IMG/VR virus record: IMGVR_UViG_3300036715_003363
Length of the DNA: 64,000 nucleotides
Direction: 5' to 3' (one strand)
Origin: a virus
Shown: positions 1 through 30,999 of the stretch, piece after piece
How positions within the stretch are numbered: the stretch's first letter is position 1
Layout: each line of letters begins with the position of its first letter
Program-made: the position numbers and the translations under genes
Notes under the pieces: model-generated
Databases searched by the model: none
What the model saw: the letters and a program-made list of their open reading frames with translations, nothing else
What the model was told of the DNA's origin: nothing

Positions 1-1
1 A

Positions 2-490
2 TTAACATCTCTAAATGGTTGTCCGGCTTCAGTTGGCAGAAACTTTTACTGTTCACGCAACCAATTAACATCTCTAAATGGTTGTCCTTCTTCAGTTGGT
101 GGAAGCTTTGACTGTTATGGCAACCAATTAACATCTCTAAATGGTTGTCCAGCTTCAGTTGATGGAAACTTTGACTGTTATAACAACAAATTAACATCTC
201 TAAATGGCTGTCCGTCTTCAGTTGGCAGAGACTTTAACTGTTCTAACAATCAATTAACATCTCTAAATGGTTGTCCGTCTTCAGTTGGTGGATACTTTAA
301 CTGTAATAACAACAAATTAACATCTCTAAATGGTTGTCCGGCTTCAGTTGGCAGAAACTTTCGCTGTTATGGCAACCTAAAAGATTTTACTGAACTAGGC
401 GTTGAAAACGCAATAAGAGCTAGTAGAATTAAAAGTAGTTTGAGCTCTCAAACCTTGGATACTTTCAGTGATATAATCGATGAACTATAA
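2..490 (+). CDS. LRR paralog, 5'-truncated by window edge (at least 6 repeats)
   Basis: Frame from nt 2 reads LTSLNGCPASVGRNFYCSRN... and ends FSDIIDEL-TAA at 488-490, the same C-cap as the following genes. Not in the ORF track because it lacks a start. Confidence 0.9.
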   Translation, partial: LTSLNGCPASVGRNFYCSRNQLTSLNGCPSSVGGSFDCYGNQLTSLNGCPASVDGNFDCYNNKLTSLNGCPSSVGRDFNCSNNQLTSLNGCPSSVGGYFNCNNNKLTSLNGCPASVGRNFRCYGNLKDFTELGVENAIRASRIKSSLSSQTLDTFSDIIDEL

Positions 491-493
491 ATT

Positions 494-1147
494 ATGAACT
501 TTAATAAACAACAATGGCTTAAAACTGTTAAGCACACAATTCACTCAGATGGAAGTATTTCTGTGCAAGGAGATGTTGATCTATATAATAAAAACCTGAC
601 AAAAATACCCTTTAAGTTTCGTAAAGTAACTGGAAACTTTAACTGTCACTACAACCAATTAACATCTCTAAATGGTTGTCCGGCTTCAGTTGGTGGAAAC
701 TTTAATTGTGCTCTCAACAAATTAACATCTCTAAATGGCTGTCCGTCTTCAGTTAGTGGAAACTTTTACTGTGGTAATAACCAATTAACATCTCTAAATG
801 GTTGTCCGTCTTCAGTTGGCGGAGACTTTAGCTGCTCTCACAACCAATTAACATCTCTAAATGGCTGTCCGTCTTCAGTTGGCAGAGACTTTCACTGTGG
901 TAACAACCAATTAACATCTTTAAACGGTGGTCCGTCTTCAGTTGGCAGAGACCTTCACTGTCCACGCAACCAATTAACATCTCTAAATGGTTGTCCGGCT
1001 TCAGTTAGTGGAAGATTTGACTGTTATGGCAACCTAAAAGATTTTACTGAACCGGATGTTGAAAACGCAATAAGAGCTAGTAGAATTAAAAGTAGTTTGA
1101 GCTCTCAAGCCTTAAATACTTTCAGTGATATAATCGATGAACTATAA
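494..1147 (+). CDS. LRR protein, 6 x 21-aa repeats
   Basis: N-cap MNFN..DGSISVQGDVDL..IPFKFRKV, repeats QLTSLNGCPSSVGGxFxCxxN, C-cap ..TFSDIIDEL. Confidence 0.9.
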   Translation: MNFNKQQWLKTVKHTIHSDGSISVQGDVDLYNKNLTKIPFKFRKVTGNFNCHYNQLTSLNGCPASVGGNFNCALNKLTSLNGCPSSVSGNFYCGNNQLTSLNGCPSSVGGDFSCSHNQLTSLNGCPSSVGRDFHCGNNQLTSLNGGPSSVGRDLHCPRNQLTSLNGCPASVSGRFDCYGNLKDFTEPDVENAIRASRIKSSLSSQALNTFSDIIDEL

Positions 1148-1150
1148 ATT

Positions 1151-1867
1151 ATGAACTTTAATGCACAACAATGGCTTAAAACTGTTAAGCACACAATTCA
1201 CTCAGATGGAAGTATTTCTGTACAAGGAGATGTTGATCTACGTGAACAAAACCTGACAAAGATACCCTTTAAGTTTCGTAAAGTATCTGGAAACTTTTTC
1301 TGTTCTCACAACCAATTAACATCTCTAAATGGTTGTCCTTCTTCAGTTGGTAGAGACTTTTACTGTCAATACAACAAATTAACATCTCTAAATGGTTGTC
1401 CATCTTCAGTAAGTGGAGGCTTTTACTGCTCTAGCAACAAATTAACATCTCTAAATGGTTGTCCTTCTTCAGTTGGTAGAGACTTTAGCTGTGATCACAA
1501 CAAATTAACATCTCTAAACGGCTGTCCGTCTTCAGTTGATGGAGACTTTTACTGTTCTTTCAATCAATTAACATCTCTAAATGGTTGTCCTTCTTCAGTT
1601 GGTGGAGACTTTAACTGTTCTCACAACCAATTAACATCTCTAAATGGTTGTCCGGCTTCAGTTAGTGGAGGCTTTAACTGTTCTTTCAATCAATTAACAT
1701 CTTTAAACGGCTGTCCTTCTTCAGTTGGTGGAGACTTTAACTGCACTGACAACCTAAAAGATTTTACTGAACTAGATATTGAAAACGCAATGAGAGCTAG
1801 TAGACTAAAAAGTAGGTTGAGCTCTCAAACCTTGGATACTTTCAGTGATATAATCGATGAACTTTAA
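1151..1867 (+). CDS. LRR protein, 7 repeats
   Basis: Same caps; 238 aa = 133 + 5x21. Confidence 0.9.
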   Translation: MNFNAQQWLKTVKHTIHSDGSISVQGDVDLREQNLTKIPFKFRKVSGNFFCSHNQLTSLNGCPSSVGRDFYCQYNKLTSLNGCPSSVSGGFYCSSNKLTSLNGCPSSVGRDFSCDHNKLTSLNGCPSSVDGDFYCSFNQLTSLNGCPSSVGGDFNCSHNQLTSLNGCPASVSGGFNCSFNQLTSLNGCPSSVGGDFNCTDNLKDFTELDIENAMRASRLKSRLSSQTLDTFSDIIDEL

Positions 1868-2510
1868 TGCACAACAATGGCTTAAAACTGTTAAGCACTC
1901 AATTCACTCAGATGGAAGTATTTCTGTACAAGGAGATGTTGATCTAAGTTGTAAAAACCTGACAAAGATACCCTTTAAGTTTCGTAAAGTAACTGGAGAC
2001 TTTTACTGTTATAACAACAAATTAACATCTCAAAATGGCTGTCCGTCTTCAGTTGGTGGAAACTTTGACTGTTCTTACAACCAATTAACATCTCTAAATG
2101 GCTGTCTGTCTTCAGTTAGTGGAGACTTTAACTGCTCTCACAACAAATTAACATCTCTAAATGGTTGTCCATCTTCAGTTAGTGGAGACTTTCACTGTTA
2201 TAACAACCAATTAATGTCTCTAAATGGTTGTCCATCTTCAGTAAGTGGAGGCTTTGACTGTTCTCGCAACCAATTAACATCTCTAAGTGGCTGTCCTTCT
2301 TCAGTTGGTGGAACCTTTAACTGTTTTAACAACCAATTAACATCTCTAAATGGTTGTCCATCTTCAGTTGGCGAAATCTTTTTCTGTTATGACAACCTAA
2401 AAGATTTTACTGAACTGGATATTGAAAACGCAATGAGAGCTAGTAGAATTAAAAGTAGTTTGAGCTCTCAAACCTTGGATACTTTCAGTGATATAATCGA
2501 TGAACTATAA
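1857..2510 (+). CDS. LRR protein, 6 repeats
   Basis: Same caps; start overlaps previous gene by 11 nt. Confidence 0.9.
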   Translation: MNFNAQQWLKTVKHSIHSDGSISVQGDVDLSCKNLTKIPFKFRKVTGDFYCYNNKLTSQNGCPSSVGGNFDCSYNQLTSLNGCLSSVSGDFNCSHNKLTSLNGCPSSVSGDFHCYNNQLMSLNGCPSSVSGGFDCSRNQLTSLSGCPSSVGGTFNCFNNQLTSLNGCPSSVGEIFFCYDNLKDFTELDIENAMRASRIKSSLSSQTLDTFSDIIDEL

Positions 2511-2513
2511 ATT

Positions 2514-2915
2514 ATGAACTTTAATGCACAACAATGGCTTAAAACTGTTAAGCATACAGTTCACTCAGATGGAAGTATCTCTGTACAAGGAGATGTTAAT
2601 CTATGTAATAAAAACCTGACAAAAATACCCTTTAAGTTTCGTAAAGTAACTGGAAACTTTAACTGTTCTCGCAACCAATTAAAGTCTCTAAACGGCTGTC
2701 CGTCTTCAGTAAGTGGAGGCTTTTACTGTCACTACAACCAATTAACATCTCTAAATGGTTGTCCGTCTTCAGTTGATGGATACTTTTTCTGTTATGACAA
2801 CCTAAAAGATTTTACTGAACTGGATATTGAAAACGCAATGAGAGCTAGTAAAATTAAAAATAGTTTGAGCTCTCAGACCTTGGAGACTTTCAGTGATATA
2901 ATCGATGAACTATGA
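2514..2915 (+). CDS. LRR protein, 2 repeats (shortest paralog)
   Basis: Both caps intact, 133 aa. Confidence 0.9.
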   Translation: MNFNAQQWLKTVKHTVHSDGSISVQGDVNLCNKNLTKIPFKFRKVTGNFNCSRNQLKSLNGCPSSVSGGFYCHYNQLTSLNGCPSSVDGYFFCYDNLKDFTELDIENAMRASKIKNSLSSQTLETFSDIIDEL

Positions 2916-3628
2916 ACTTTAATGCACAACAATGGCTTAAAACTGTTAAGCACTCAATTCACTCAGATGGAAGTATTTCTGTACAAGGAGATGTTGATAT
3001 AAGTGATCAAAACCTGACAAAGATACCCTTTAGGTTTCGTAAAGTAACTGGAAGATTTGACTGCTCTTACAACAGATTAACATCTCTAAATGGTTGTCCG
3101 TCTTCAGTTGGTGGAGGCTTTGACTGCTCTAACAACCAATTAACATCTCTAAATGGTTGTCCATCTTCAGTTGATGGAAGATTTGACTGTTATGGCAACC
3201 AATTAACATCTCTAAATGGTTGTCCGTCTTCAGTTAGTGGAGACTTTCACTGTGGTAACAACCAATTAACATCTCTAAATGATTGTCCTTCTTCAGTTGG
3301 TGGTAACTTTAACTGTTCTAACAACCAATTAACATCTCTAAATGGTTGTCCGTCTTCAGTTGGTGGAAACTTTGACTGTTATAACAACAAATTAACATCT
3401 CTAAATGGTTGTCCGTCTTCAGTTGGTGGAAACTTTGACTGTTATGACAACAAATTAACATCTCTAAATGGCTGTCCTTCTTCAGTTAGTGGAGGCTTTG
3501 ACTGTTATGACAACCTAAAAGATTTTACAAAACTGGATATTGAAAACGCAATGAGAGCTAGTAAAATTAAAAATAGTTTGAGCTCTCAGACCTTAGATAC
3601 TTTCAGTGATATAATCGATGAACTATGA
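2912..3628 (+). CDS. LRR protein, 7 repeats
   Basis: Same caps; ATGA overlap. Confidence 0.9.
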   Translation: MNFNAQQWLKTVKHSIHSDGSISVQGDVDISDQNLTKIPFRFRKVTGRFDCSYNRLTSLNGCPSSVGGGFDCSNNQLTSLNGCPSSVDGRFDCYGNQLTSLNGCPSSVSGDFHCGNNQLTSLNDCPSSVGGNFNCSNNQLTSLNGCPSSVGGNFDCYNNKLTSLNGCPSSVGGNFDCYDNKLTSLNGCPSSVSGGFDCYDNLKDFTKLDIENAMRASKIKNSLSSQTLDTFSDIIDEL

Positions 3629-4407
3629 ACTTTAATAAACAACAATGGCTTAAAACTGTTAAGCACACAATTCACTCAGATGGAAGTATTTCTGTACAAG
3701 GAGATGTTGATCTATGTGATAAAAACCTGACAGAGCTACCCTTTAAGTTTCGTAAAGTATCTGGAGACTTTAACTGCTCTTTCAACAAATTAACATCTTT
3801 AAGTGGTTGTCCGTCTTCAGTTGGTGGAGACTTCTACTGTGATCACAACCAATTAACATCTCTAAGTGGTTGTCCAACTTCAGTTGGCGGAGGCTTTAAC
3901 TGTTCTCACAACCAATTAACATCTCTAAATGGTTGTCCATCTTCAGTTGGTGGAGCCTTTTACTGTAATAATAACAACCAATTAACATCTTTAAATGGTT
4001 GTCCATCTTCAGTTGGTGGAGCCTTTTACTGTTATAACAACCAATTAACATCTCTAAATGGTTGTCCATCTTCAGTTGGTGGAGGCTTTTACTGTTATGG
4101 CAACCAATTAACATCTCTAAATGGCTGTCCTTCTTCAGTTGGTGGAAACTTTTTCTGTTCTAACAACCAATTAACATCTCTAAATGGTTGTCCTTCTTCA
4201 GTTGGTGGAGGCTTTTACTGTGATCACAACCAATTAACATCTCTAAATGGTTGTCCGTCTTCAGTCAGTAAAGACTTTTACTGCTCTGACAACCTAAAAG
4301 ATTTTACTAAACTGGATATTGAAAACGCAATGAGAGCTAGTAGAATAAAAAGTAGTTTGAGCTCTCAGACCTTGGAGACTTTCAGTGATATAATCGATGA
4401 ACTTTAA
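3625..4407 (+). CDS. LRR protein, 8 repeats (one with an extra Asn)
   Basis: 260 aa = 133 + 6x21 + 1; YCNNNNQL insertion. Confidence 0.9.
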   Translation: MNFNKQQWLKTVKHTIHSDGSISVQGDVDLCDKNLTELPFKFRKVSGDFNCSFNKLTSLSGCPSSVGGDFYCDHNQLTSLSGCPTSVGGGFNCSHNQLTSLNGCPSSVGGAFYCNNNNQLTSLNGCPSSVGGAFYCYNNQLTSLNGCPSSVGGGFYCYGNQLTSLNGCPSSVGGNFFCSNNQLTSLNGCPSSVGGGFYCDHNQLTSLNGCPSSVSKDFYCSDNLKDFTKLDIENAMRASRIKSSLSSQTLETFSDIIDEL

Positions 4408-5176
4408 TGCACAACAATGGCTTAAAACTGTTAAGCATACAGTTCACTCAGATGGAAGTATCTCTGTACAAGGAGATGTTGATCTATGTGATAAAAACCT
4501 GACAGAGCTACCCTTTAAGTTTCGTAAAGTATCTGGAGACTTTAACTGTGATTACAACAAATTAACATCTCTAAATGGCTGTCCGTCTTCAGTTGGCAGA
4601 GGCTTTTACTGTTATACCAACCAATTAACATCTCTAAATGGTTGTCCATCTTCAGTTGGTGGAGACTTTGAATGTGATCACAACCAATTAACATCTCTAA
4701 ACGGTTGTCCGGCTTCAGTTGATGGAAACTTTGACTGTTCTAGCAACCAATTAATGACTCTAAACGGTTGTCCGGCTTCAGTTGATGGAAACTTTTACTG
4801 TGCTTACAACCAATTAACATCTCTAAGTGGTTGTCCGTCTTCAGTTAGTAAAGGCTTTTACTGTGGTGACAACCAATTAACATCTCTAAGTGGTTGTCCG
4901 TCTTCAGTTGGTAAAGGCTTTTACTGTGGTGACAACCAATTAACATCTTTAAACGGTGGTCCGTCTTCAGTTGGTGGAAGCTTTGACTGTACTAACAACC
5001 AATTAACATCTCTAAATGGTTGTCCGTCTTCAGTTGGTAAAGGCTTTTACTGTGGTGACAACCTAAAAGATTTTACAAAACTGGATATTGAAAACGCAAT
5101 GAGAGCTAGTAAAATTAAAAATAGTTTGAGCTCTCAGACCTTGGAGACTTTCAGTGATATAATCGATGAACTTTAA
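4397..5176 (+). CDS. LRR protein, 8 repeats, last of array
   Basis: 259 aa, same caps. Confidence 0.9.
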   Translation: MNFNAQQWLKTVKHTVHSDGSISVQGDVDLCDKNLTELPFKFRKVSGDFNCDYNKLTSLNGCPSSVGRGFYCYTNQLTSLNGCPSSVGGDFECDHNQLTSLNGCPASVDGNFDCSSNQLMTLNGCPASVDGNFYCAYNQLTSLSGCPSSVSKGFYCGDNQLTSLSGCPSSVGKGFYCGDNQLTSLNGGPSSVGGSFDCTNNQLTSLNGCPSSVGKGFYCGDNLKDFTKLDIENAMRASKIKNSLSSQTLETFSDIIDEL

Positions 5177-5217: not shown

Positions 5218-5526
5218 ATGCTAAACGAAAAAACTCTCGACAATTTTATCTTTCAGAATAATAGCTTAGAGCAAATCTGTACAAGGGAATATGTTTCCGG
5301 AGTACTAGCGTTTGGAGCATATCTGTCAATTCTAAATAATAAAAGGATTAATCCTTCCACTCTATTCACATCAGTTCTTGAAAATTTAGAACTACGCGAA
5401 CTGTTTATTATTATAACAGGAGCAGAAAATACAAAGGAAGCTCTACTTGGTCTCTTGCAATTATATCCAGCGCTTATAAAATCGAAGAATACTAAAAAGC
5501 TATTCAAAAAATCGATTAAAAAGTGA
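5218..5526 (+). CDS. hypothetical protein
   Basis: 102-aa ORF preceded by promoter motif, GTGA-coupled to next gene. Confidence 0.7.
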   Translation: MLNEKTLDNFIFQNNSLEQICTREYVSGVLAFGAYLSILNNKRINPSTLFTSVLENLELRELFIIITGAENTKEALLGLLQLYPALIKSKNTKKLFKKSIKK

Positions 5527-6176
5527 CACCAAACGAGAAACGAATTTATAACACGCACCTAGTTGTCTCCAGATCTGAAAGAGGAAAACCTTTCAGACTC
5601 AGAGATGATTTTAGTAATTTTGAAGATGACCCGAAATATAATGCAGTTCGACGTATATCAGTATTTGCAGCCAAATACCCTGACATTGATCTCAATGATT
5701 ATTTTAAAGCTCCTTATGTGCTTTATCCTGATACACAGTACTTCGACCTTGCGTACTTTGCATCGCCAAGAGCGATTAAAAGTTACACAATCTTTAAACA
5801 GGAACTAGAAAAGAAATCTCCTGATAGTATGGTTGAAGATGTAAAGAACAGCCTTCGTTTCATTGGAAACTTCTGTCTCAAAAATAACATTGATTATACG
5901 GAATATACAGATTTTGTATTATCAGGATTAGCGCCTGAATGGATGTATCATATTAAAAATCGCAATATAAATATATATGCACTTATGGAGTTCCCTGGAC
6001 TCCTTGAATGCATTAATAAAGTTGTTGAAGATGAGCAGTATTTACTGATTGGTCCAATATCAAAAAACTTTATTGATTATAAAAATAAATATCACTCATC
6101 ATTAACATTAAGACCCTTTCTTCAAGTTGCTCATGAAAAAGTCAAATTTTTTGTAGATAAAAACTTGAAAAAATAA
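5523..6176 (+). CDS. possible gp59-like helicase loader
   Basis: 217 aa directly upstream of gp32, as in the T4 59-32 order; only weak sequence resemblance. Confidence 0.35.
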   Translation: MTPNEKRIYNTHLVVSRSERGKPFRLRDDFSNFEDDPKYNAVRRISVFAAKYPDIDLNDYFKAPYVLYPDTQYFDLAYFASPRAIKSYTIFKQELEKKSPDSMVEDVKNSLRFIGNFCLKNNIDYTEYTDFVLSGLAPEWMYHIKNRNINIYALMEFPGLLECINKVVEDEQYLLIGPISKNFIDYKNKYHSSLTLRPFLQVAHEKVKFFVDKNLKK

Positions 6177-6192
6177 AAAACTAATACATAAT
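6165..6192 (+). promoter_or_regulatory. possible sigma70-like promoter for gp32 operon
   Basis: TTGAAA (6165) - 16 nt - CATAAT (6187); AT-rich context weakens it. Confidence 0.3.
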
Positions 6193-6212
6193 ATAACCAA
6201 CATAACCACTAT

Positions 6213-7100
6213 ATGACATTTAATACTAATATATTCAACGAAATCAAAGGCACATTAGCTAAGGCTGATAACAACTTCAAAGATATTTTGAAGTTCGAGC
6301 CAGGAAAGACCTACCAAGTTCGTCTCGTGCCTGATGTAAAAAACCCTCGCGGAACCATCAATCACTACTTCCATCACTCCTGGAAGAGTCTTCAAACAGG
6401 TCGATTCATTACTCACCTCTGTCCAACTACCTACGGAGAGGCATGCCCAATTGATCAGTATCTCATGAAGACGTTTAATGCAGGAGAAGTAACAACTGCA
6501 GAGAAGACAAAGCTTCAGAATATTTATCGTAATGAGTCCTTCCTTGTAAACGCCTATGTAATCTCTGATCCAACTAATCCTGATAATGAAGGTAAAGTTA
6601 AGATCATTCGCTACGGTAAAGAGCTTGCAAAGATTATTAACAGCGCAATTGACGGGGATGACGCCGATGAATTCGGTGCAAAGATCTTTGACGTTCAGAC
6701 CGGATCTACACTTCGAATTAAGTGTGAATCTCGTGCAAATTCCACAAGTTCAAGCGCAAAGAAATATACAACATATTCATCTTCTAAGTTCTTGACTCCA
6801 TCAAAGATTGACGTTGATGTTGACAAGATCTATAATGCAATTCACGATCTCACAAAGCTTTCAGGTCGTCGTGTAACGACAGCAGAGCTTCAGAAGTCTC
6901 TTGAGCAACACTATCACTGCATTCAGGATGCCCCTGAGATTACAGATGATGAATATCAAGAAGAGACAAATTACGCGACTCCAGCAGCCACAAAGTCGAC
7001 AATTAATATTGACGAAATCTTCAAGGGGGTTGAAACGGCTGGCGATCCAGTTGAACTTTCCGAAGAAGATGCTGGTCTTAAAGAGTTGCTTGATCTGTAA
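6213..7100 (+). CDS. gp32: single-stranded DNA-binding protein, gp32-like
   Basis: VRLVP..YFHH..CPTTYGEACPID Zn motif, KVKIIRYGK, IFD..G..LRIK, Y..SKF, acidic C-tail. Confidence 0.85.
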   Translation: MTFNTNIFNEIKGTLAKADNNFKDILKFEPGKTYQVRLVPDVKNPRGTINHYFHHSWKSLQTGRFITHLCPTTYGEACPIDQYLMKTFNAGEVTTAEKTKLQNIYRNESFLVNAYVISDPTNPDNEGKVKIIRYGKELAKIINSAIDGDDADEFGAKIFDVQTGSTLRIKCESRANSTSSSAKKYTTYSSSKFLTPSKIDVDVDKIYNAIHDLTKLSGRRVTTAELQKSLEQHYHCIQDAPEITDDEYQEETNYATPAATKSTINIDEIFKGVETAGDPVELSEEDAGLKELLDL

Positions 7101-7136: not shown

Positions 7137-7982
7137 ATGAGAAAACCCAAAAATAACCCGAAGACAAACGCAGATATTCCAGACATTCAAGCTGGAACAA
7201 CTGACTTTCACAAGAAATATATTCCTAAGGTAGGTACAAGAGATGCTTGTTTGCCGGTTAAAATTGTTCGCAAAGATGGAACAGTGAATGAAGGATCTGG
7301 TAAATTTAGCATGTATTCGGATCTAAGTGCAGACAACAGAGGTTCTCACATGAGTCGATATCGTCTTCTTATTGAAGAGGTTGTACAGAAAGACAGTTAC
7401 TTTATTCATGATGTAATTAAAGATCTGCTTACTGAGTGTAAGCAGCGTCTTAATTCTGATAATGCTTATGTAAAGATTAAGTTTGACTATTTTTTGAAGC
7501 GTAAAGCTCCAGTATCAGGTGTGACGTCACACATGGATTATCGCGGCAATATGGAGGGTCGTCTTATCAATGGAAAACAAAAACTATATTTAACGGTTCA
7601 CGTTATGTATGCATCTCTGTGTCCGTGTTCGAAAGAAATTAGTAATTATGGCGCACACAACCAACGTTCCGTCGCTGACGTAACAGTTGAGCTTGATGAA
7701 TCAAAGGGAATTTTCTATATTGAAGATCTCATTGATATTGTTGAGCAAAATGCATCTGCACCAATTATTAATGCTCTTAAACGAGTTGACGAAGCTTGGC
7801 AAACTGAGCTGATGTATGAGAATCCTGTATTTGTTGAGGATATTGTCCGAAATATTGCAGTTGACCTCGATAAGGAACTCGAGAATAGAATTCTCGACTA
7901 TTCAGTGGTTGTTAATCATTATGAGAGTATTCATACTTCTGTAGCATGTGCTTTTATTAACGCAGGTAGAGACCTAAAGTAA
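7137..7982 (+). CDS. folE2: GTP cyclohydrolase I type B (FolE2)
   Basis: PDIQ, RGSHMSR, SLCPCSKEIS..GAHNQRS, LKRVDE, YENPVFVEDIVR, YESIH motifs. Confidence 0.92.
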   Translation: MRKPKNNPKTNADIPDIQAGTTDFHKKYIPKVGTRDACLPVKIVRKDGTVNEGSGKFSMYSDLSADNRGSHMSRYRLLIEEVVQKDSYFIHDVIKDLLTECKQRLNSDNAYVKIKFDYFLKRKAPVSGVTSHMDYRGNMEGRLINGKQKLYLTVHVMYASLCPCSKEISNYGAHNQRSVADVTVELDESKGIFYIEDLIDIVEQNASAPIINALKRVDEAWQTELMYENPVFVEDIVRNIAVDLDKELENRILDYSVVVNHYESIHTSVACAFINAGRDLK

Positions 7983-9831: not shown

Positions 9832-11445
9832 ATGGTTAGTAAAGATAATCAGGATAATATTAATCCAGTAAATATTAAGCAGTGTTATAGAGGAGATAAA
9901 AATATTCCGACTCCTGATGCGGAATATAACTATACTCCTGCAATGGTTAAAGAGATTAAAAAGTGTAAGGAAAGCATTATTCACTTTGCTGAAAATCATT
10001 TTTATATTACCAACCTTGATCGAGGTAAAGAAAAGATTGAATTATATACTGCACAAAAGAGAGTGCTTCGTTCTCTAATGAATAATAGATTTGTTTGTCT
10101 TCTATCAAGTCGTCAGGCAGGAAAAGCGTTAGATGTTGATACTCCAATATTAACAGACAAAGGATGGGAAAAAATAGGAGATCTAAAAAATGGTGATTTT
10201 GTCTACGGTATCGATGGTAAAAAAACAAGAGTTGTTAAAGCACACGATATTCTTTATAAAAGAGATTGTTACGAAGTTGAGTTTGATAACGGCGAAAAAA
10301 TAGTAGCTGATGGTGATCACTTGTGGTTTACGCAATCACGATCAGAAAGAAAGAAAACAAAAGGAAGTGTTAAAACAACAAAAGACATTTTAAGTAATTT
10401 AAAAACATATAGCGGCGCGCCAAATCATAGAATTCCGATATGCATATCCGGCATTGAGAATTCAACAAAATTACTACCAATTGATCCTTACACGTTAGGA
10501 TTATGGCTAGGAGATGAAACAAACACATCAATAAGACTATCGTGCAAGACACTAAAGAAGAGTGAGAGTCTCACATCTATCATTAAAGAAAATAAACACA
10601 TTCCATCAGAATACTTCTTATCTTCGCGGGAGCAACGATTAGAATTATTAAAAGGTTTAATAGATTCAGATGGATATGTAAGACATGATGGAGGAACTTA
10701 TTTTTATAACACTAATCTCGAACTTGTTCAGCAAGTAAGAACACTTATTGAAGGCTTAGGATATAAAGTAACATATAAAGATTTTATACTCAAACCAAAC
10801 GGCGTTGAATGTACTCGATGCGGAATGATCACGTTTCAGCCGAGAGAGTTAGTTTGTACACTACCCTCTAAAACAAAAAGAATTAAAGTAGAACCTCAAG
10901 TGCATAACAGTAAAAAAAGAGGACATTATCACTATATTAAAAATATTACAGCTGTTAAAAGCAGACCTGTGAGATGCATCTCAGTTGATAATGAAGATAA
11001 TCTATATCTTGCAGGTAAACAATTAATTCCAACTCATAATAGTACTATTATGACAATCTATGCGCTTTGGCTTGCGTGTTTTTATTCTGATCAAAGAATT
11101 GTTATTGTTGCAAACAAAGAGAAGACTGCGACAAATATTTTTGGAAGAGTTAGAATGGCGTATGAACAGCTTCCAGGATACATTAAGCCTGGCGTAAAGG
11201 AATATCAAAAGACTGGTGTTATATTTGCAAACGATTCAAGTATCGGTGTATCAACAACAACATCTACTGCAGTAAGAGGAGAGTCAATTAATTGCTTGAT
11301 CTGTGATGAGCTTGCATTTGTGGAATGCGTGACAGGTGATTCGTTGATTGAGGTAAGAAACAAAAAAAACAAAGAAATTAAAAAAATAACAATACGTAAT
11401 TTTATGGAACTGTTATCAGTAAATAGTAACAGAGAAGGATTTTAA
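9832..11445 (+). CDS. gp17: large terminase fragment 1: ATPase N-part (Walker A RQAGK/ST, Walker B LICDE) with contiguous intein and C-terminal 39-aa split N-intein
   Basis: Y.G..N.P, EIKKC, SRQAGK|STI, VANK..TA, RGES.N.L..DE motifs of T4 gp17. Confidence 0.92.
   Translation: MVSKDNQDNINPVNIKQCYRGDKNIPTPDAEYNYTPAMVKEIKKCKESIIHFAENHFYITNLDRGKEKIELYTAQKRVLRSLMNNRFVCLLSSRQAGKALDVDTPILTDKGWEKIGDLKNGDFVYGIDGKKTRVVKAHDILYKRDCYEVEFDNGEKIVADGDHLWFTQSRSERKKTKGSVKTTKDILSNLKTYSGAPNHRIPICISGIENSTKLLPIDPYTLGLWLGDETNTSIRLSCKTLKKSESLTSIIKENKHIPSEYFLSSREQRLELLKGLIDSDGYVRHDGGTYFYNTNLELVQQVRTLIEGLGYKVTYKDFILKPNGVECTRCGMITFQPRELVCTLPSKTKRIKVEPQVHNSKKRGHYHYIKNITAVKSRPVRCISVDNEDNLYLAGKQLIPTHNSTIMTIYALWLACFYSDQRIVIVANKEKTATNIFGRVRMAYEQLPGYIKPGVKEYQKTGVIFANDSSIGVSTTTSTAVRGESINCLICDELAFVECVTGDSLIEVRNKKNKEIKKITIRNFMELLSVNSNREGF
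10126..11040 (+). mobile_element. contiguous class-3-type intein (305 aa) with eroded LAGLIDADG endonuclease
   Basis: Starts Ala (ALDVDTPILT), block B DHLW, block F VRCISV, ends PTHN/S; LGLWLGD and LKGLIDSDG motifs. Confidence 0.9.
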
Positions 11446-11792
11446 TTTTTATGGAGAACGAAAAGGAGGAATATATTGGTACAGATGAATGGGAGATTCT
11501 TACTCCATCCGGATGGCAATCATTTAAAGGTATTATATGCAGAGGTGTAAATGAAGTAAATAATGTCATTACAGAGAGCTCAAAAAAAATAAAAGTTACA
11601 GACAATCATGAGTTTATAAATCAATTAAATCATACAATTAAGTGTATAGATGCAAAAAATTGTTTTATTAAAACTGTTGATGGAACAGAGAAAATTACAA
11701 GCATTTTAAGCAGCGATGCTGAAGAAGTATATGATATAGTAGAGGTAGAAAACGGCAATATATTTTATGCGAACGGTATTGCTAACCACAAT
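11326..11792 (+). mobile_element. atypically split intein TerL-A: 39-aa IntN (11326-11442) + 114-aa IntC (11451-11792)
   Basis: CVTGDSLI...EGF-stop; next ORF has EILTPSGW, VTDNH, VYDIVEV, ANHN/C; splicing restores DELAFVE-CHLVEEFW. Confidence 0.85.
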
Positions 11793-12152
11793 TGCCACCT
11801 TGTAGAAGAGTTTTGGAACTCAGTTATCCCAGTTATTTCGTCCGGTAAGAAAACTAAAATTTTCGTTGTATCAACTCCTAATGGGGTTGCAAATAAGTTT
11901 TACGAAATCTATTCTGGAGCTGAAAAAGATGAAAATGGTTGGAAAGCAGAGAGAATTGACTGGTGGGAAATTCCCGGCAGAACTGAAAAATGGAAGGCGC
12001 AGATGATCGGTGCCCTCGGATCAGCGGAGAGTTTTAATGTTGAATTCGGAAATTGTGTAGAGGGATTATCTATTTTAAGCATAAATATAAACAACAAAAT
12101 AGAAAATATAACTATTAAAGATTTATATGAAACGTGTGAAAACAGATATTGA
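11451..12152 (+). CDS. gp17: large terminase fragment 2: IntC + 87-aa extein (motif III STPNG) + 32-aa IntN
   Basis: Extein CHLVEEFWNSVIPVISSG..STPNG..NKFY..WWEIPGR..EFGN is T4 gp17-like. Confidence 0.9.
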   Translation: MENEKEEYIGTDEWEILTPSGWQSFKGIICRGVNEVNNVITESSKKIKVTDNHEFINQLNHTIKCIDAKNCFIKTVDGTEKITSILSSDAEEVYDIVEVENGNIFYANGIANHNCHLVEEFWNSVIPVISSGKKTKIFVVSTPNGVANKFYEIYSGAEKDENGWKAERIDWWEIPGRTEKWKAQMIGALGSAESFNVEFGNCVEGLSILSININNKIENITIKDLYETCENRY

Positions 12153-12578
12153 AAAACAAATATCATGAATCACCTAAACAAACCGAAAAGGATTTAAAAC
12201 GACAAAAAATTATACAGGGCGAACCAAAATGTAATTTTATAATGTTAAGAGATTATGATAAAGCGTAATTATAAGAATGTTGAAGTTGTTACACCAACAG
12301 GTCTTAAAACCTTTTACGGTATTAGTAAGCAAAAAAAGGAATGTATTATTATTAATACAGAATTTAATAAATCTATTGTTGTATCAAAATTTCATCCGTT
12401 TATAGTTGGCGGTGACATAGTATTATCAAATGCGCTTAAAAAAGGTGATTGTCTTGAAAGCTATAACGGAAAATTTATAAAAATTCAATCGATTAAAGAT
12501 GTAGGAAAAAAAGACGTCTATGATCTAGTTGGTGTTGATGGTGACTGCTATTTTGCAAATGGTTTTCTTGTACATAAT
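12054..12578 (+). mobile_element. atypically split intein TerL-B: 32-aa IntN (12054-12149) + 108-aa IntC (12255-12578)
   Basis: CVEGLSIL...NRY-stop; next ORF has EVVTPTG, SKFH, VYDLVGV, LVHN/C; splicing restores VEFGN-CFLNSG. Confidence 0.88.
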
Positions 12579-13493
12579 TGCTTTCTTAATTCAGGTAACG
12601 CAGCAGTCGGCGCAGAAATTTTAGAAAAATTTAAACAGGAAAAAAAACCCGTAATTTGGGACGGCGAAGATGGAGGGTATAGAGTGTTTGAACTACCAGC
12701 TCCTAATAAAATGTATGTAGTTGGTGTTGATGTTGGAGAGGGTGTCGGCCGAGCATCTTCTGTTGCTCAAGTACTTGATGTAACAGATTTACAAGATATT
12801 AAACAAGTAGCGGTATACGGAACAAATAAAATAGAGCCTTATCATTTTGCTAATAAACTACATAATTTAGCAAGCTCTTGGGGAAATCCACCGATCCTAA
12901 TTGAGCGCAATAATTGCGGCGCGTCAGTTATTGACGCCTTATATCAAAATTTACACTACGATAAAATTGTAAGCTATTCAAAACTCTCAAATACTGGATC
13001 ATTCGCATCAACTCGTCATCTTGGCGTGTATAGTCACAACAATTTACGATTTGCATCTGTTGCTAATATGAGATATTGGCTCAATTTCTTGCAGGTTGTT
13101 CACATAAACGACATTGATACCATTAAAGAACTTGAAACATTTATCAGATATCCAAATGGCACGTATCGCAAACAAAGTGAAAAATTTTATGATGATCGCG
13201 TCATGGCTCTTGTGTGGTCTCTATTCATACTTGAAACAGATATATGTCAACAATATTACCAGGTTGACGAATACGACACCCAGAATAAGCCTCAAGTATT
13301 AAGTCGATATGCATATGAAGATATTAACCCTGATACGTATGTTTTACGAGATTTGACGTCAAAACTAGAGACTTCAATTGTATCTCCCACTGAGGGTCAA
13401 AAGTATAAATCGCTCATTAATAACGATGATTCGTATAATTCTTCTGAAGATGATCTGGATTCTCTATTAAGTAATGGTTGGACATACATGTGA
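12255..13493 (+). CDS. gp17: large terminase fragment 3: IntC + RNase H-like nuclease domain
   Basis: YVVGVDVGEGVG, LIERNN, DDRVMAL nuclease motifs. Confidence 0.92.
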   Translation: MIKRNYKNVEVVTPTGLKTFYGISKQKKECIIINTEFNKSIVVSKFHPFIVGGDIVLSNALKKGDCLESYNGKFIKIQSIKDVGKKDVYDLVGVDGDCYFANGFLVHNCFLNSGNAAVGAEILEKFKQEKKPVIWDGEDGGYRVFELPAPNKMYVVGVDVGEGVGRASSVAQVLDVTDLQDIKQVAVYGTNKIEPYHFANKLHNLASSWGNPPILIERNNCGASVIDALYQNLHYDKIVSYSKLSNTGSFASTRHLGVYSHNNLRFASVANMRYWLNFLQVVHINDIDTIKELETFIRYPNGTYRKQSEKFYDDRVMALVWSLFILETDICQQYYQVDEYDTQNKPQVLSRYAYEDINPDTYVLRDLTSKLETSIVSPTEGQKYKSLINNDDSYNSSEDDLDSLLSNGWTYM

Positions 13494-28611: not shown

Positions 28612-28866
28612 ATGGCTAATATTTTTTCACCGACCCTTCCTATAACAGGACCGTGGTATATCTCAAGTGATGACTGGATGGGTGATTCCTTGCAGTATTT
28701 TAATGCAAACGTAAATTATCTTGCAACTCTTATTAATACCCTTAGCGCACAGAGTATAAGTCAAACAACTATTATTAATACCCTTAGTACGCAGAATATA
28801 AGTCAAACAACTCTTATTAATACTCTTAGTACTAATCTTGTAGCGCTCAGTGCTTACGTCGGCTAA
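28612..28866 (+). CDS. small protein with 2.5 x 14-aa repeats
   Basis: 42-nt units at 28729, 28771, 28813 (LINTLSxQxISQTT). Confidence 0.65.
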   Translation: MANIFSPTLPITGPWYISSDDWMGDSLQYFNANVNYLATLINTLSAQSISQTTIINTLSTQNISQTTLINTLSTNLVALSAYVG

Positions 28867-29864
28867 GCACTGCAGCTCTCACAATTGAGAATATTTCTAG
28901 CTAATTCCTGAGCAGGATTACTTGAGCGCTGATAATAAAGACTCTTAATGCCTTGTTCCCAGGCGAAAATCATTAAATCACTGACATCTTTCGGCTTTGT
29001 TGTGTGAGGAATCATTAAATTCAGTGATTGTCCTTGATCAATAAACTTTTGACGAGCCGCAGCTTGTATTATGATCTCTTTTTGTGAAATTTCGCCAAAT
29101 GTTTTATAAACAGCCTTTTCATGATCGCTTAAAAATTCTAAATGCTGAATAGAGCCTCCGCGCTTAAGAATTGATTCCCATACTTCATCAGTGTGCTGAC
29201 TCTTCTCTTTAAGAAGAGCTTTAAGATGAGGGCTTCTAAAAGTAAACTTGCCTTTTGCAAGATCTTTCACAAAATAGTTTCCATTAAGAGGTTCAATTGA
29301 AGGTGAAACCTGCCCGAGAATGAATGACGAAGAAGTTGTTGGAGCAACTGCGAGAGTTGTAGTGTTTCGTCGTCCATATCCTTCTAATAGAGGCGGCTCA
29401 CCAAGAAGTTTTGCAAGCTCTTCTGTTGCTCTGTCAGCCTTTTCGCGAATTGTCTTCCAAATTGTTGAGTTAAGAATTTTTGCTTCCATTGATTCAAACG
29501 GAATTGATTTCGCGTGAAGAAGAGAATGCCATCCAAGAACCCCAACACCAAGAGCGCGCTGATTAATTGCAAACTTACGAGGTGCATCCATGAATTTCAT
29601 ATTTTCTGTCTTTTCAATAAATTCAGACATAACTGCATCAAGGAAGTACACGAGAGTTTCAACGGCATCAGTGTTTTTCCATTCTTCCCATTTTTCAAGA
29701 TTAAGAGAAGAAAGATCACACACAAAAGATTCATCAACTGAGTTTGAAAGAGAAATTTCCGCACAGTTGTGCACTAAAATTTTATTCGCGAAAAAGTTTG
29801 CAGTTTTTTCAACAGTGATGTCATAAACAGGTTCGGTTCTTTTGATTCGTCTAATTTTTATCAT
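28863..29864 (-). CDS. nrdA: class I ribonucleotide reductase alpha, C-terminal fragment with 33-aa IntC
   Basis: ILVHN/CAEI, CDLSSLN, LGVGVLG, VAPTTSSS, FIDQGQS, LYY, C-term CESC. Confidence 0.95.
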   Translation of the reverse strand: MIKIRRIKRTEPVYDITVEKTANFFANKILVHNCAEISLSNSVDESFVCDLSSLNLEKWEEWKNTDAVETLVYFLDAVMSEFIEKTENMKFMDAPRKFAINQRALGVGVLGWHSLLHAKSIPFESMEAKILNSTIWKTIREKADRATEELAKLLGEPPLLEGYGRRNTTTLAVAPTTSSSFILGQVSPSIEPLNGNYFVKDLAKGKFTFRSPHLKALLKEKSQHTDEVWESILKRGGSIQHLEFLSDHEKAVYKTFGEISQKEIIIQAAARQKFIDQGQSLNLMIPHTTKPKDVSDLMIFAWEQGIKSLYYQRSSNPAQELARNILNCESCSA

Positions 29865-30249
29865 GATTTGTAAGTATTAAATTGTTATTCTTTTTTATAG
29901 TTGCATGCAGTGAGATTATATAATCGGTCTAACTACAACTCTGTATAATATCCGTTTCTTCTAGTTCTTGTGCTTGAATATATCCTCTGTTTTGAGTAAA
30001 GATTAAATGCTCAGGTGTACAACGAACTATATTTCCTTTTTCGTCTTCAATTTCAATTAAATCTTCAGACTCACCGGTTTGTGCAAAGGCAGTAATACTT
30101 TCATATGTAACAGAAGATGAATCAATATCATATGATCTAACCTTAATATTACTATAAATTTTATTATAATATTCTAAATCTTTAATGGGTATTTCAAGAT
30201 ATGTAATATCATTAATAATTATTTCAATAATAGTATCACCTGTAACGCA
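29766..30249 (-). mobile_element. split intein in NrdA: 106-aa IntN (30249-29932) + 33-aa IntC (29864-29766)
   Basis: NSNL|CVTGDT..CTPEH..; MIKI..VYDITV..NFFAN..VHN|CAEI; 64-nt gap. Confidence 0.93.
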
Positions 30250-30999
30250 CAAATTACTGTTATGAATTACAAGTCCTTTATCTTTATATACTTGAGGGGC
30301 TTGGTTGTTAGCATTATCAGAAAAGAATATATAAGGATAACCAGACGCAAAGCGCTTCTTAATAATGAGACCCCAAATCTTACGTTTGTGTTTGTCTCCG
30401 TCAATTAGATCCTTCATCCACGCATCTGAAATACAAACCCCAATTGATACGTCTTGAATTGTGTTACCAACATCCTTAATTTGCAAAAATTCCTCAATGT
30501 CAGGATGATCAACCGGAAGGTATGCTGCAAATGACCCACGTCTAACACTTCCCTGTGAAATTACACTCATTAGACTGTCATAAAGCTCCATAAAGTGAAC
30601 AGATCCTGTTGATTCACCGCCTGATGAGATTGCGGCACCTCTTCCGCGAATTTTACCAAAATAAGCAGATGTTCCACCGCCAACAGCAGTCATAACACCG
30701 ATCTCAGATACCTTTTCGAGAATACTCTCAATAGTGTCATCAATACAGCTTCCAAAACAGCTTATTGGGAGAGCTCTCGATCTACCAAAATTAGCCCAAA
30801 TCGGAGAGCTTAGGCTATACATCCCTTCCTTCATATAACCAATAAATTTCTCCGCAAATCCTTTATAAAGGTATTTTTCAGCTGTGTTAGCAATTTCTTC
30901 AATTCTTTGTTCAGCTGTTTCACCATCTATAAGGTATCCGCGACTAAGAAATTTGCGTGAATCTTTGTTTAGCCAGTAATAATCGTGCGTATTTGTCAT
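29929..30999 (-). CDS. nrdA: class I ribonucleotide reductase alpha, N-terminal fragment (no ATP cone) with IntN
   Basis: SSPIWANFG, PISCF, GGGTS, SQGSVRRG..AAYL...HPDI..FL, GYPYI, SNL. Confidence 0.95.
   Translation of the reverse strand: MTNTHDYYWLNKDSRKFLSRGYLIDGETAEQRIEEIANTAEKYLYKGFAEKFIGYMKEGMYSLSSPIWANFGRSRALPISCFGSCIDDTIESILEKVSEIGVMTAVGGGTSAYFGKIRGRGAAISSGGESTGSVHFMELYDSLMSVISQGSVRRGSFAAYLPVDHPDIEEFLQIKDVGNTIQDVSIGVCISDAWMKDLIDGDKHKRKIWGLIIKKRFASGYPYIFFSDNANNQAPQVYKDKGLVIHNSNLCVTGDTIIEIIINDITYLEIPIKDLEYYNKIYSNIKVRSYDIDSSSVTYESITAFAQTGESEDLIEIEDEKGNIVRCTPEHLIFTQNRGYIQAQELEETDIIQSCS

Follow-up and report, generated by a model that had tools for sequence, protein, structure and literature searches.

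An array of LRR genes in a T4-like phage

The DNA analysed here (the window, 64,000 nucleotides in full) is 64 kb of the ~184-kb genome of a T4-like phage, and its first 5,176 positions (1-5176) hold eight LRR genes in tandem, which between them have 57 variable segments. Segments were re-extracted from the eight ORFs with the motif G/R/K-x3-F/L-x4-C-x5-x6-N, and the number of repeats ranges from 3 to 9 per gene. The genes of the array are:

2..490, + strand: LRR gene with its 5′ end truncated by the window start; 6 variable segments (starting at 38, 101, 164, 227, 290 and 353), then a C-terminal tail
494..1147, + strand: LRR gene, 217 aa; N-cap, 7 variable segments (632-1010) and a C-terminal two-helix tail
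1151..1867, + strand: LRR gene, 238 aa; 8 variable segments (1289-1730); its product was used for folding
1857..2510, + strand: LRR gene, 217 aa; 7 variable segments (1995-2373); its start overlaps 1151..1867 by 11 nt
2514..2915, + strand: LRR gene, 133 aa; 3 variable segments (2652-2778)
2912..3628, + strand: LRR gene, 238 aa; 8 variable segments (3050-3491)
3625..4407, + strand: LRR gene, 260 aa; 9 variable segments (3763-4270); an additional Asn codon past 3952 makes one repeat 22 residues long
4397..5176, + strand: LRR gene, 259 aa, the last of the array; 9 variable segments (4535-5039), with the segment K-G-F-Y-C-G-D-N present three times

A megablast search of the array against a phage collection returned no match, and the PHROGs matches of the LRR proteins were to families of unknown function only. 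The AlphaFold2 model of the 238-aa product of 1151..1867 (pLDDT 93.6) is an LRR solenoid with an N-cap, a regular pattern of two strands per repeat and two C-terminal helices. Its best PDB matches in Foldseek are the LRR domains of IpaH, SspH1/2 and YopM together with hagfish VLR, with TM values of 0.58-0.64 for IpaH7.8, SspH1 and IpaH1.4 and with VLR A29 at rank 15. Sequence comparison with phmmer likewise matched the LRR domains of SspH2 (E = 9.5e-17), InlJ, SspH1 and IpaH, and the Pfam LRR_4 profile scored 23.6 bits, under its 27-bit cut-off. The array proteins are LRR proteins of the LPX-like bacterial subtype, with tandem LxxLxLxxNxL repeats that build a solenoid whose concave side carries a parallel beta-sheet. 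IpaH, SspH and YopM LPX LRRs and the lamprey and hagfish VLRs, the best matches by both sequence and fold, bind their targets through this concave sheet. The array proteins differ from the bacterial effectors in having no NEL ligase domain and no secretion signal, and from VLRs in that there is no somatic assembly, the diversity being germ-line and spread across paralogous genes. They carry no signal peptide and are encoded between a DnaB-like helicase gene on one side and gp32 on the other, and therefore probably act within the cell.

Third bases are fixed at four hypervariable codons

The original prediction held that the variable codons radiate from AAC or AAT with a fixed third base whatever the amino acid, resembling adenine mutagenesis by a diversity-generating retroelement (DGR). 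Recounting all 57 segments reproduced the claimed third bases at x3 (C in 54, A in 3), x4 (C in 55, T in 1, A in 1) and x5 (T in 52, A in 3, C in 2); at x6 the pattern stands with C in 55 and T in 2, rather than the 56 of 57 first given. Tabulation of the same segments also bore out that Tyr, Asp, Gly and Phe codons end in C at x3, x4 and x6 and in T at x5, and that each of the six codons one step from AAC at positions 1-2 is present, along with the double changes listed. The proposed origin of x5 from AAT did not survive, as AAT accounts for just 2 of 57 codons there and TCT (19) and TAT (15) are the commonest. The NNC spectrum at x3, x4 and x6 is very uneven: 122 of the 171 codons (71%) are NAC, ACC occurs twice and ATC once, GCC and CTC are rare, and CCC, GTC, TCC and TGC are missing from the 171. 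At x4, position 2 is A in 88% of units. Most patches are distinct (76 of 90), and residues within them are not independent, either between x5 and x6 (p = 0.0005) or between x3 and x4 (p = 0.0025); together with a codon spectrum drawn from few residues, this dependence points to heavy selection or common ancestry.

Change is concentrated at hypervariable positions 1-2

Column statistics over the 49 internal 63-nt units of the window array separate the hypervariable patch sharply from its framework. Minor alleles make up 42% of cells in hypervariable columns, 6.7% in framework columns with a non-A consensus and 1.7% in framework A columns, the framework adenines being the least variable bases of the unit. 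Twelve such adenines occur per unit and are nearly invariant; for the six silent ones (columns 3, 6, 9, 15, 33 and 42) 4 of 294 cells are minor, in agreement with the near-invariance noted at the outset. Framework variation is chiefly G/A and T/C at columns with a non-A consensus. Mean pairwise diversity in the window at codon positions 1, 2 and 3 is 0.63, 0.44 and 0.10 for hypervariable codons and 0.09, 0.04 and 0.14 for framework codons, and hypervariable positions 1-2 change ~6-10 times faster than silent sites. Deaminase-type editing was considered separately and rejected because all four bases are found at columns 49 and 58.

Aligned paralogous segments give the same contrast: positions 1 and 2 of hypervariable codons differ at 27 of 62 sites and their third bases at 2 of 33, while 63 of the 1344 other sites differ; the best of these segments are already 4-7% diverged, so that they yield a rate contrast and no stepwise mutation spectrum. 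Across five metagenome samples, contigs of this array hardly differ, with 1 mismatch over 2365 nt, 1 over 1931 nt and none over 1296 nt. Two SNPs separate samples, one of them GGC/GAC at an x3 codon, and position 2032 in gene 1857..2510 is A in the window (CAA, Gln) and T in another sample (CTA, Leu).

Searches for RT, Avd and template

For this phage, the search for RT and template covered the window. Profile searches found no RVT_1 domain in any window ORF of at least 160 aa and a Pfam scan of window ORFs gave no Avd (PF05635). No copy of the repeat lies off the array in the window: a 23-nt framework word (up to 3 mismatches) has 48 matches there, all within 59-5019, and matches to AAC-TTT-AAC-TGT-AAT-AAC (up to 2 mismatches) are confined to the array, leaving no off-array template and confirming the original observation that the window holds neither RT nor template repeat. 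Across the family, RVT_1 was found in none of 45 viral records that carry these LRR genes, with control genomes positive; most of the 45 share the frozen-third-base signature and 6 are at least 90% complete. Avd was absent from 4 complete viral records of the family, its control likewise positive, and the signature occurs in 4 complete phage genomes with neither RT nor Avd. One complete RT-free record is a T4-like relative of 238,814 bp (G044), whose capsid protein gp23 is 66% identical. The complete cultured Vibrio phage VB_VaC_SRILMA, which carries a homologous and less variable LRR gene, also has no RVT_1 and no Avd.

The same signature marks related arrays

At least 576 stretches in IMG/VR and more than 3,500 proteins belong to this LRR family, and the carriers of the pattern are very different phages, with sizes between 39 and 597 kb. 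Third bases frozen position by position recur in dozens of further viral contigs of the family, with letters that differ between arrays. Third bases at x3/x4/x5/x6 read T/T/C/C in array L034, T/T/T/C in L068, C/T/C/C in L077, C/C/C/C in L035 and L081, and T/T/T/T in L002. Arrays with diverged frameworks have mixed third bases (L059, L065, L078 and L080), and positions 1-2 of the hypervariable codons in the youngest arrays approach saturation with silent sites barely changed (0.56 versus 0.08 in L034). Over 53 arrays, third-base diversity averages 0.231 in hypervariable and 0.247 in framework codons, and the two are correlated (Spearman 0.69, p = 1e-8). The hypervariable third base thus behaves as any other silent site of its array, and since its diversity tracks that of the framework, a fixed third base reflects the youth or homogenisation of the array.

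In 834 repeats from 120 family proteins, hypervariable residues are mostly D, N, S, G, Y and H, with K, E, Q, M and W together contributing 5.5-9.4% as compared with 16.8% in the other proteins of the window. Purine-ending codons make up 7% in young arrays and 17% in old ones, which leaves a small probability of a mutational bias toward positions 1-2.

Weighing the explanations

Ordinary mutation combined with strong diversifying selection on young, homogenised repeats, with no RT or template involved, is probably the explanation of the array. Codon usage or chance alone is hardly credible: the AT-richness of the genome in general, and nothing more, speaks for it, and codon usage was rejected as the cause because x3, x4 and x6 end in C against a genome that prefers T. 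Across 26 further window ORFs the share of C among two-fold Y-ending codons is 0.20-0.46 and GGC makes up 16% of Gly codons, whereas at x3/x4/x6 such codons end in C in 135 of 138 cases and Gly is GGC in 18 of 18 (binomial p = 5e-15), while x5 is T-ending.

A classical DGR, with its RT, Avd and template elsewhere in the genome and the template rewritten into many repeats, has several points in its favour. The array resembles the Bordetella phage BPP-1 system (Mtd/bRT/Avd) in its NNY codons, which have a fixed third base like derivatives of AAY template codons (PMC7826257) and include no stop codons, and in variable residues that lie where a phage protein binds its ligand. A uniform framework would likewise be explained by a homing template, and ~120 kb of the genome lies beyond the searched window. 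However, the Bordetella phage DGR misreads all 22 of its coding template adenines at 28-76% (PMC7826257), and mutation of every template adenine is incompatible with the 12 near-invariant framework adenines in each unit, which include six silent ones and vary less than the non-A bases. The x5 consensus of TCT/TAT rather than AAT, the retention of A at position 2 of x4 and the narrow, NAC-dominated codon spectrum argue in the same direction, as do the absence of RT and template from the window and the identical signature in complete genomes free of RT and Avd. The array further differs from BPP-1 in having at least 57 short patches in many genes as targets, rather than one C-terminal region, and in its LRR fold, which is neither C-type lectin nor Ig. 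A DGR is therefore very unlikely, and the reading of the locus as the product of a DGR-like mutator falls for want of adenine specificity, of RT or template in the window and of RT in any of the 45 family records.

Two further accounts dispense with RT. Old polymorphic cassettes could have been shuffled by recombination, with a gene-converted framework, balancing selection on the cassettes and no recent rise in rate; the variable repeat number, the recurrence of certain patches, the association within x5-x6 pairs and the 45-nt framework blocks as possible recombination sites are consistent with this, but old cassettes should have diverged third bases within patches, as in L059, L065, L078 and L080, and the window is 95% uniform with most of its patches distinct, which makes shuffling improbable. 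There is also little chance that an undescribed RT-independent process diversifies the LRR family by raising the mutation rate in the 18-nt patch, or at positions 1-2 of the four variable codons in each 63-nt repeat, with selection only pruning the outcome. Near-saturation of positions 1-2 where silent sites have hardly moved (L034, L068, L077 and the window), the rarity of purine-ending codons in young arrays and the fall of one of just two cross-sample SNPs in a hypervariable codon would fit it. Against it, neither a candidate enzyme nor a conserved cis element turned up, phages of such different genome sizes would each need the mechanism, few amino acids dominate the spectrum, residues within patches are non-independent, and consensus sequences are stable across five samples. 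The claim of a new mutator is thus unlikely, and selection is probably what lies behind the excess change at positions 1-2.

Under diversifying selection on homogenised repeats, the array would encode a phage set of small stand-alone LRR binders, each with a solenoid of the IpaH/SspH/YopM type that is capped at its N-terminus and ends in two helices. It would have expanded on the spot through tandem duplication and unequal recombination, which acted both on 63-nt units and on entire genes. Owing to the youth or continual homogenisation of the repeats, silent sites, hypervariable third bases included, would be nearly uniform, and those third bases would retain the letters of the founder repeat (C, C, T and C in the window). 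Point mutations at codon positions 1-2 of x3-x6, on the concave face, would be fixed faster through selection for new binding specificities. A strong amino-acid filter would favour N, D, Y, H, G and S and admit some F and R; since every one of these has NNY codons, purine-ending codons (K, E, Q, M, W) would remain rare. Strong positive selection on a homogenised repeat had been the other option offered by the original prediction, and it is this option that the data support, with positions 1-2 outpacing silent sites in the window and across 53 arrays. Framework third-base diversity (0.14) well below that of hypervariable positions 1 (0.63) and 2 (0.44), the spread in repeats per gene and the like behaviour of the 53 arrays place the locus among concertedly evolving repeats with hypervariable binding positions.

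Relation to other repeat families and implications

Fungal HIC repeats are under positive selection. Like Dictyostelium LRRs, the HIC repeats of fungal NLRs resemble the array in near-identical DNA repeats, few hypervariable positions and shuffled repeats, although both are eukaryotic and of other repeat types (WD40/ANK/TPR; 22-residue FNIP) and were compared by paper description rather than by sequence. In Dictyostelium LRRs (FNIP/IP22) the hypervariable residues are mainly Y, D, H and N, that is, NAY codons (PMC10392669), a repertoire like that of the array which there arises without any DGR. A bacterial counterpart is the LRR locus of Flavobacterium psychrophilum, where up to 19 tandem genes each encode 2-14 LRRs of ~22 residues, with a conserved scaffold, hypervariable positions on one face and evidence of recombination between copies (PMC10392669). 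Its products are secreted (signal peptide and T9SS signal) and reach the cell surface (PMC10392669); by contrast, the array is phage-encoded, its proteins have no signal peptide, and its cap, tail and LPX-like repeat subtype are different.

The DGR-like codon signature of this locus was a tempting false positive, now removed: in young repeats whose preferred residues (N, D, Y, H, G, S) all have NNY codons, an NNY signature does not by itself count as evidence of a DGR. We found no description of phage LRR arrays in the literature and, as far as our searches show, this large phage LRR family is undescribed. If an RT-independent targeted process that rewrites just positions 1-2 of the four codons did prove true, the arrays would amount to a germ-line, VLR-like binder repertoire evolving faster than selection on ordinary mutation allows. 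The family carries one of the clearest footprints of diversifying selection, replicated independently in dozens of phage genomes. Its proteins are natural scaffolds for binder engineering, and the arrays are candidate phage-encoded binder repertoires against variable host proteins.

A hypervariable LRR gene array in a T4-like phage

Eight head-to-tail LRR ORFs occupy window positions 1–5176, the first of them truncated by the window edge. Each encodes 3 to 9 repeats between a conserved cap and a conserved tail, both about 45 aa long, and the 21-aa (63-nt) repeat unit follows the consensus QLTSLNGCPSSVGG-x-F-x-C-x-x-N, in which the four x codons (x3, x4, x5 and x6) are hypervariable and the remaining columns form the framework. 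At 3952–3978, in the gene at 3625–4407, an extra AAT (Asn) yields a 22-residue repeat that reads N-N-N-N-Q and slips the 63-nt register by 3 nt. Junctions between neighbouring LRR genes are overlaps of 4 or 11 nt (1857–1867, 2912–2915, 3625–3628 and 4397–4407) or gaps of 3 nt, and the start ATGAACTTTAA lies within the last codons of the preceding LRR gene, an arrangement that suggests translational coupling and a recombination-friendly junction.

On its gene content we assign the phage to the T4-like myoviruses; the phage collection held no close relative at the DNA level. Pfam matches in the window include the virion proteins gp23 (major capsid protein), gp20 (portal), prohead protease, scaffold, tail sheath and the baseplate proteins gp25 and gp6, together with gp32, the gp44 clamp loader, ribonucleotide reductase (with inteins), dUTPase and FolE2. 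The genes for terminase and the ribonucleotide reductase large subunit are divided into several ORFs with intein/HINT signatures (9832–13493 and 28863–30999), a pattern resembling split or multiple inteins. A FolE2-type GTP cyclohydrolase I gene adjoins gp32 (7137–7982) and fits a 7-deazaguanine DNA-modification pathway. The array starts directly 3′ of a DnaB-like helicase gene, which bears an intein in this phage, and Vibrio phage VB_VaC_SRILMA carries one homologous LRR gene at the same location (L011:528–3727, in a contig from a sister sample, and L001:4293–6585). The placement of LRR genes beside the helicase is conserved synteny within an early/replication gene region.

The predicted fold of a 238-aa LRR protein is a capped LRR solenoid with two C-terminal helices (pLDDT 93.6). 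Its nearest counterparts by sequence and fold are the LRR domains of SspH2, SspH1, IpaH and YopM, and a hagfish VLR is among its matches. Alignment with SspH2 places x3-F-x4-C-x5-x6-N opposite the corresponding SspH2 LRR stretch, and we read this segment as the probable LxLxxN motif of the LRR consensus. On that reading, the variable residues are presumably the solvent-exposed ones of the concave sheet, as is established for LRRs in general.

Third bases of hypervariable codons are frozen

Re-extraction of the variable segments from the eight ORFs gave 57 segments with a near-constant third base at each position, as originally counted except at x6, where C occurs in 55 rather than 56. At x3, x4 and x6, 135/138 two-fold pyrimidine-ending codons end in C, against a C share of 0.20–0.46 in the rest of the window, and Gly is GGC in 18/18 cases against 16% elsewhere (p = 5e-15), so the pattern is real and non-random. 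The proposed spread of NNC codons around AAC proved narrower than described: 71% of x3/x4/x6 codons are NAC (Asn, Asp, Tyr, His), GGC comes next, ACC and ATC hardly occur and four NNC codons do not occur at all. Codons at x5 centre on TCT and TAT and do not radiate from AAT as had been suggested. With 33 further repeats of this phage from contigs L011 and L012, which presumably cover the opposite end of its genome, the total rose to 90 and the picture was unchanged.

The LRR protein family is very large, with more than 3,500 matches among 8,000 scored candidates and at least 576 stretches in IMG/VR. Among 53 arrays with at least 8 repeats, every array shows a third base of its own for each of the four hypervariable codon positions, so the frozen third base is a general signature whose letter is lineage-specific.

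Third bases at x3/x4/x5/x6 in the window and in arrays on other contigs
Window: C 54/57, C 55/57, T 52/57, C 55/57
L034: T/T/C/C
L068: T/T/T/C
L077: C/T/C/C
L035 and L081: C/C/C/C
L002: T/T/T/T
L040 and L053: A at x5

The x5 third base is mostly A in L040, L053, L055, L070, L072 and L073, so an NNY rule is not universal at x5. In L068, a 43-kb complete viral record, repeat units lie on both strands of one stretch (5400–6700).

Framework adenines are nearly invariant

The original prediction likened this pattern to the A-to-N mutagenesis of a diversity-generating retroelement (DGR). In a Bordetella phage DGR, misreading affects all 22 coding template adenines, at 28–76% and irrespective of sequence context, and leaves other bases at baseline (PMC7826257). 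A DGR template holding the repeat would by this behaviour scramble framework adenines, yet these are the least variable columns of the array.

Minor alleles by column class in 49 internal 63-nt units
8 hypervariable columns: 42%
43 non-A framework columns: 6.7%
12 framework A columns: 1.7%

Six of the framework adenines are silent third bases; already noted as almost invariant, they vary in 4/294 cells. Framework variation is mainly G/A and T/C in columns with a non-A consensus (codons 13 and 14, and third bases of Gly, Pro and Cys). Position 2 of x4 is A in 43/49 units, x3 varies almost exclusively by transitions, and x5–x6 and x3–x4 are statistically associated across the 90 repeats, all of which is at odds with adenines being randomised independently.

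As first reported, no reverse transcriptase or template was found in the window: no ORF of at least 160 aa matches Pfam RVT_1, and every copy of the repeat framework within the window lies inside the array. RVT_1 was likewise found in 0/45 viral records carrying the LRR family, six of them with a completeness of 90% or more (39, 43, 172 (with terminal repeats), 239, 363 and 597 kb), and was absent from the complete Vibrio phage VB_VaC_SRILMA. The accessory protein Avd was absent from the five most complete genomes tested; control genomes were positive in both searches. The 239-kb record belongs to a T4-like phage related to that of the window (gp23 66% identical). A DGR-like interpretation of the array is therefore not supported, and with framework adenines so stable and RVT_1 lacking from the family-bearing records tested, a DGR encoded in the part of the genome outside the window is extremely improbable.

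Probable selection on young or homogenised repeats

Across the 53 arrays, mean pairwise third-base diversity is 0.231 at hypervariable codons and 0.247 in the framework, with a correlation between them (Spearman 0.69, p = 1e-8). Where the framework has diverged (L059, L065, L078 and L080), hypervariable third bases are a mixture of C and T with some purines, and where it is uniform (the window, L034, L068 and L077), they are frozen. Because it tracks framework diversity in this way, the fixed third base is an ordinary silent site of a young or homogenised array. By contrast, diversity at hypervariable positions 1 and 2 is high in all 53 arrays (means 0.58 and 0.43; window 0.63 and 0.44), even where silent diversity is 0.08–0.14, a rate excess of about 6–10-fold by our own estimate from a simple multiple-hit correction with no fitted model. 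Aligned paralogous segments differ at 27/62 hypervariable position-1/2 sites, 63/1344 other sites and 2/33 hypervariable third bases.

Contigs with the same array from five metagenome samples, perhaps not independent, differ at only two sites, showing no rampant consensus-level turnover: one mismatch in 2365 nt, at a framework Leu/Gln codon (window 2032), one in 1931 nt, GGC/GAC at an x3 codon, and none in 1296 nt. At 2032 the window has A (CAA, Gln) at a conserved framework Leu and the contig of sample 3300035182 has T (CTA, Leu); either the A is a rare variant or the window's record was misassembled at this base.

Hypervariable positions are also under a strong amino-acid filter: across the family, D, N, S, G, Y and H predominate, K+E+Q+M+W make up only 5.5–9.4% versus 16.8% in the window's other proteins, and even within NNC codons there is little Thr, Ile, Ala, Val, Pro or Cys. 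The favoured residues all have pyrimidine-ending codons, so the third base stays untouched. Hypervariable LRR residues of Dictyostelium purpureum are similarly dominated by Y, D, H and N, as in the phage array, without a DGR (PMC10392669).

Old cassettes shuffled among repeats and a targeted mutational process of an as yet undescribed kind are each very unlikely sources of the diversity. The pattern is most probably explained by strong diversifying selection acting on repeats that are young or homogenised, combined with the amino-acid filter, in line with the alternative offered originally, positive selection on a homogenised repeat. Diversifying selection would drive change at positions 1 and 2, far faster than at silent sites, silent third bases would stay near-uniform among young or homogenised repeats, and the filter would keep the hypervariable codons pyrimidine-ending.
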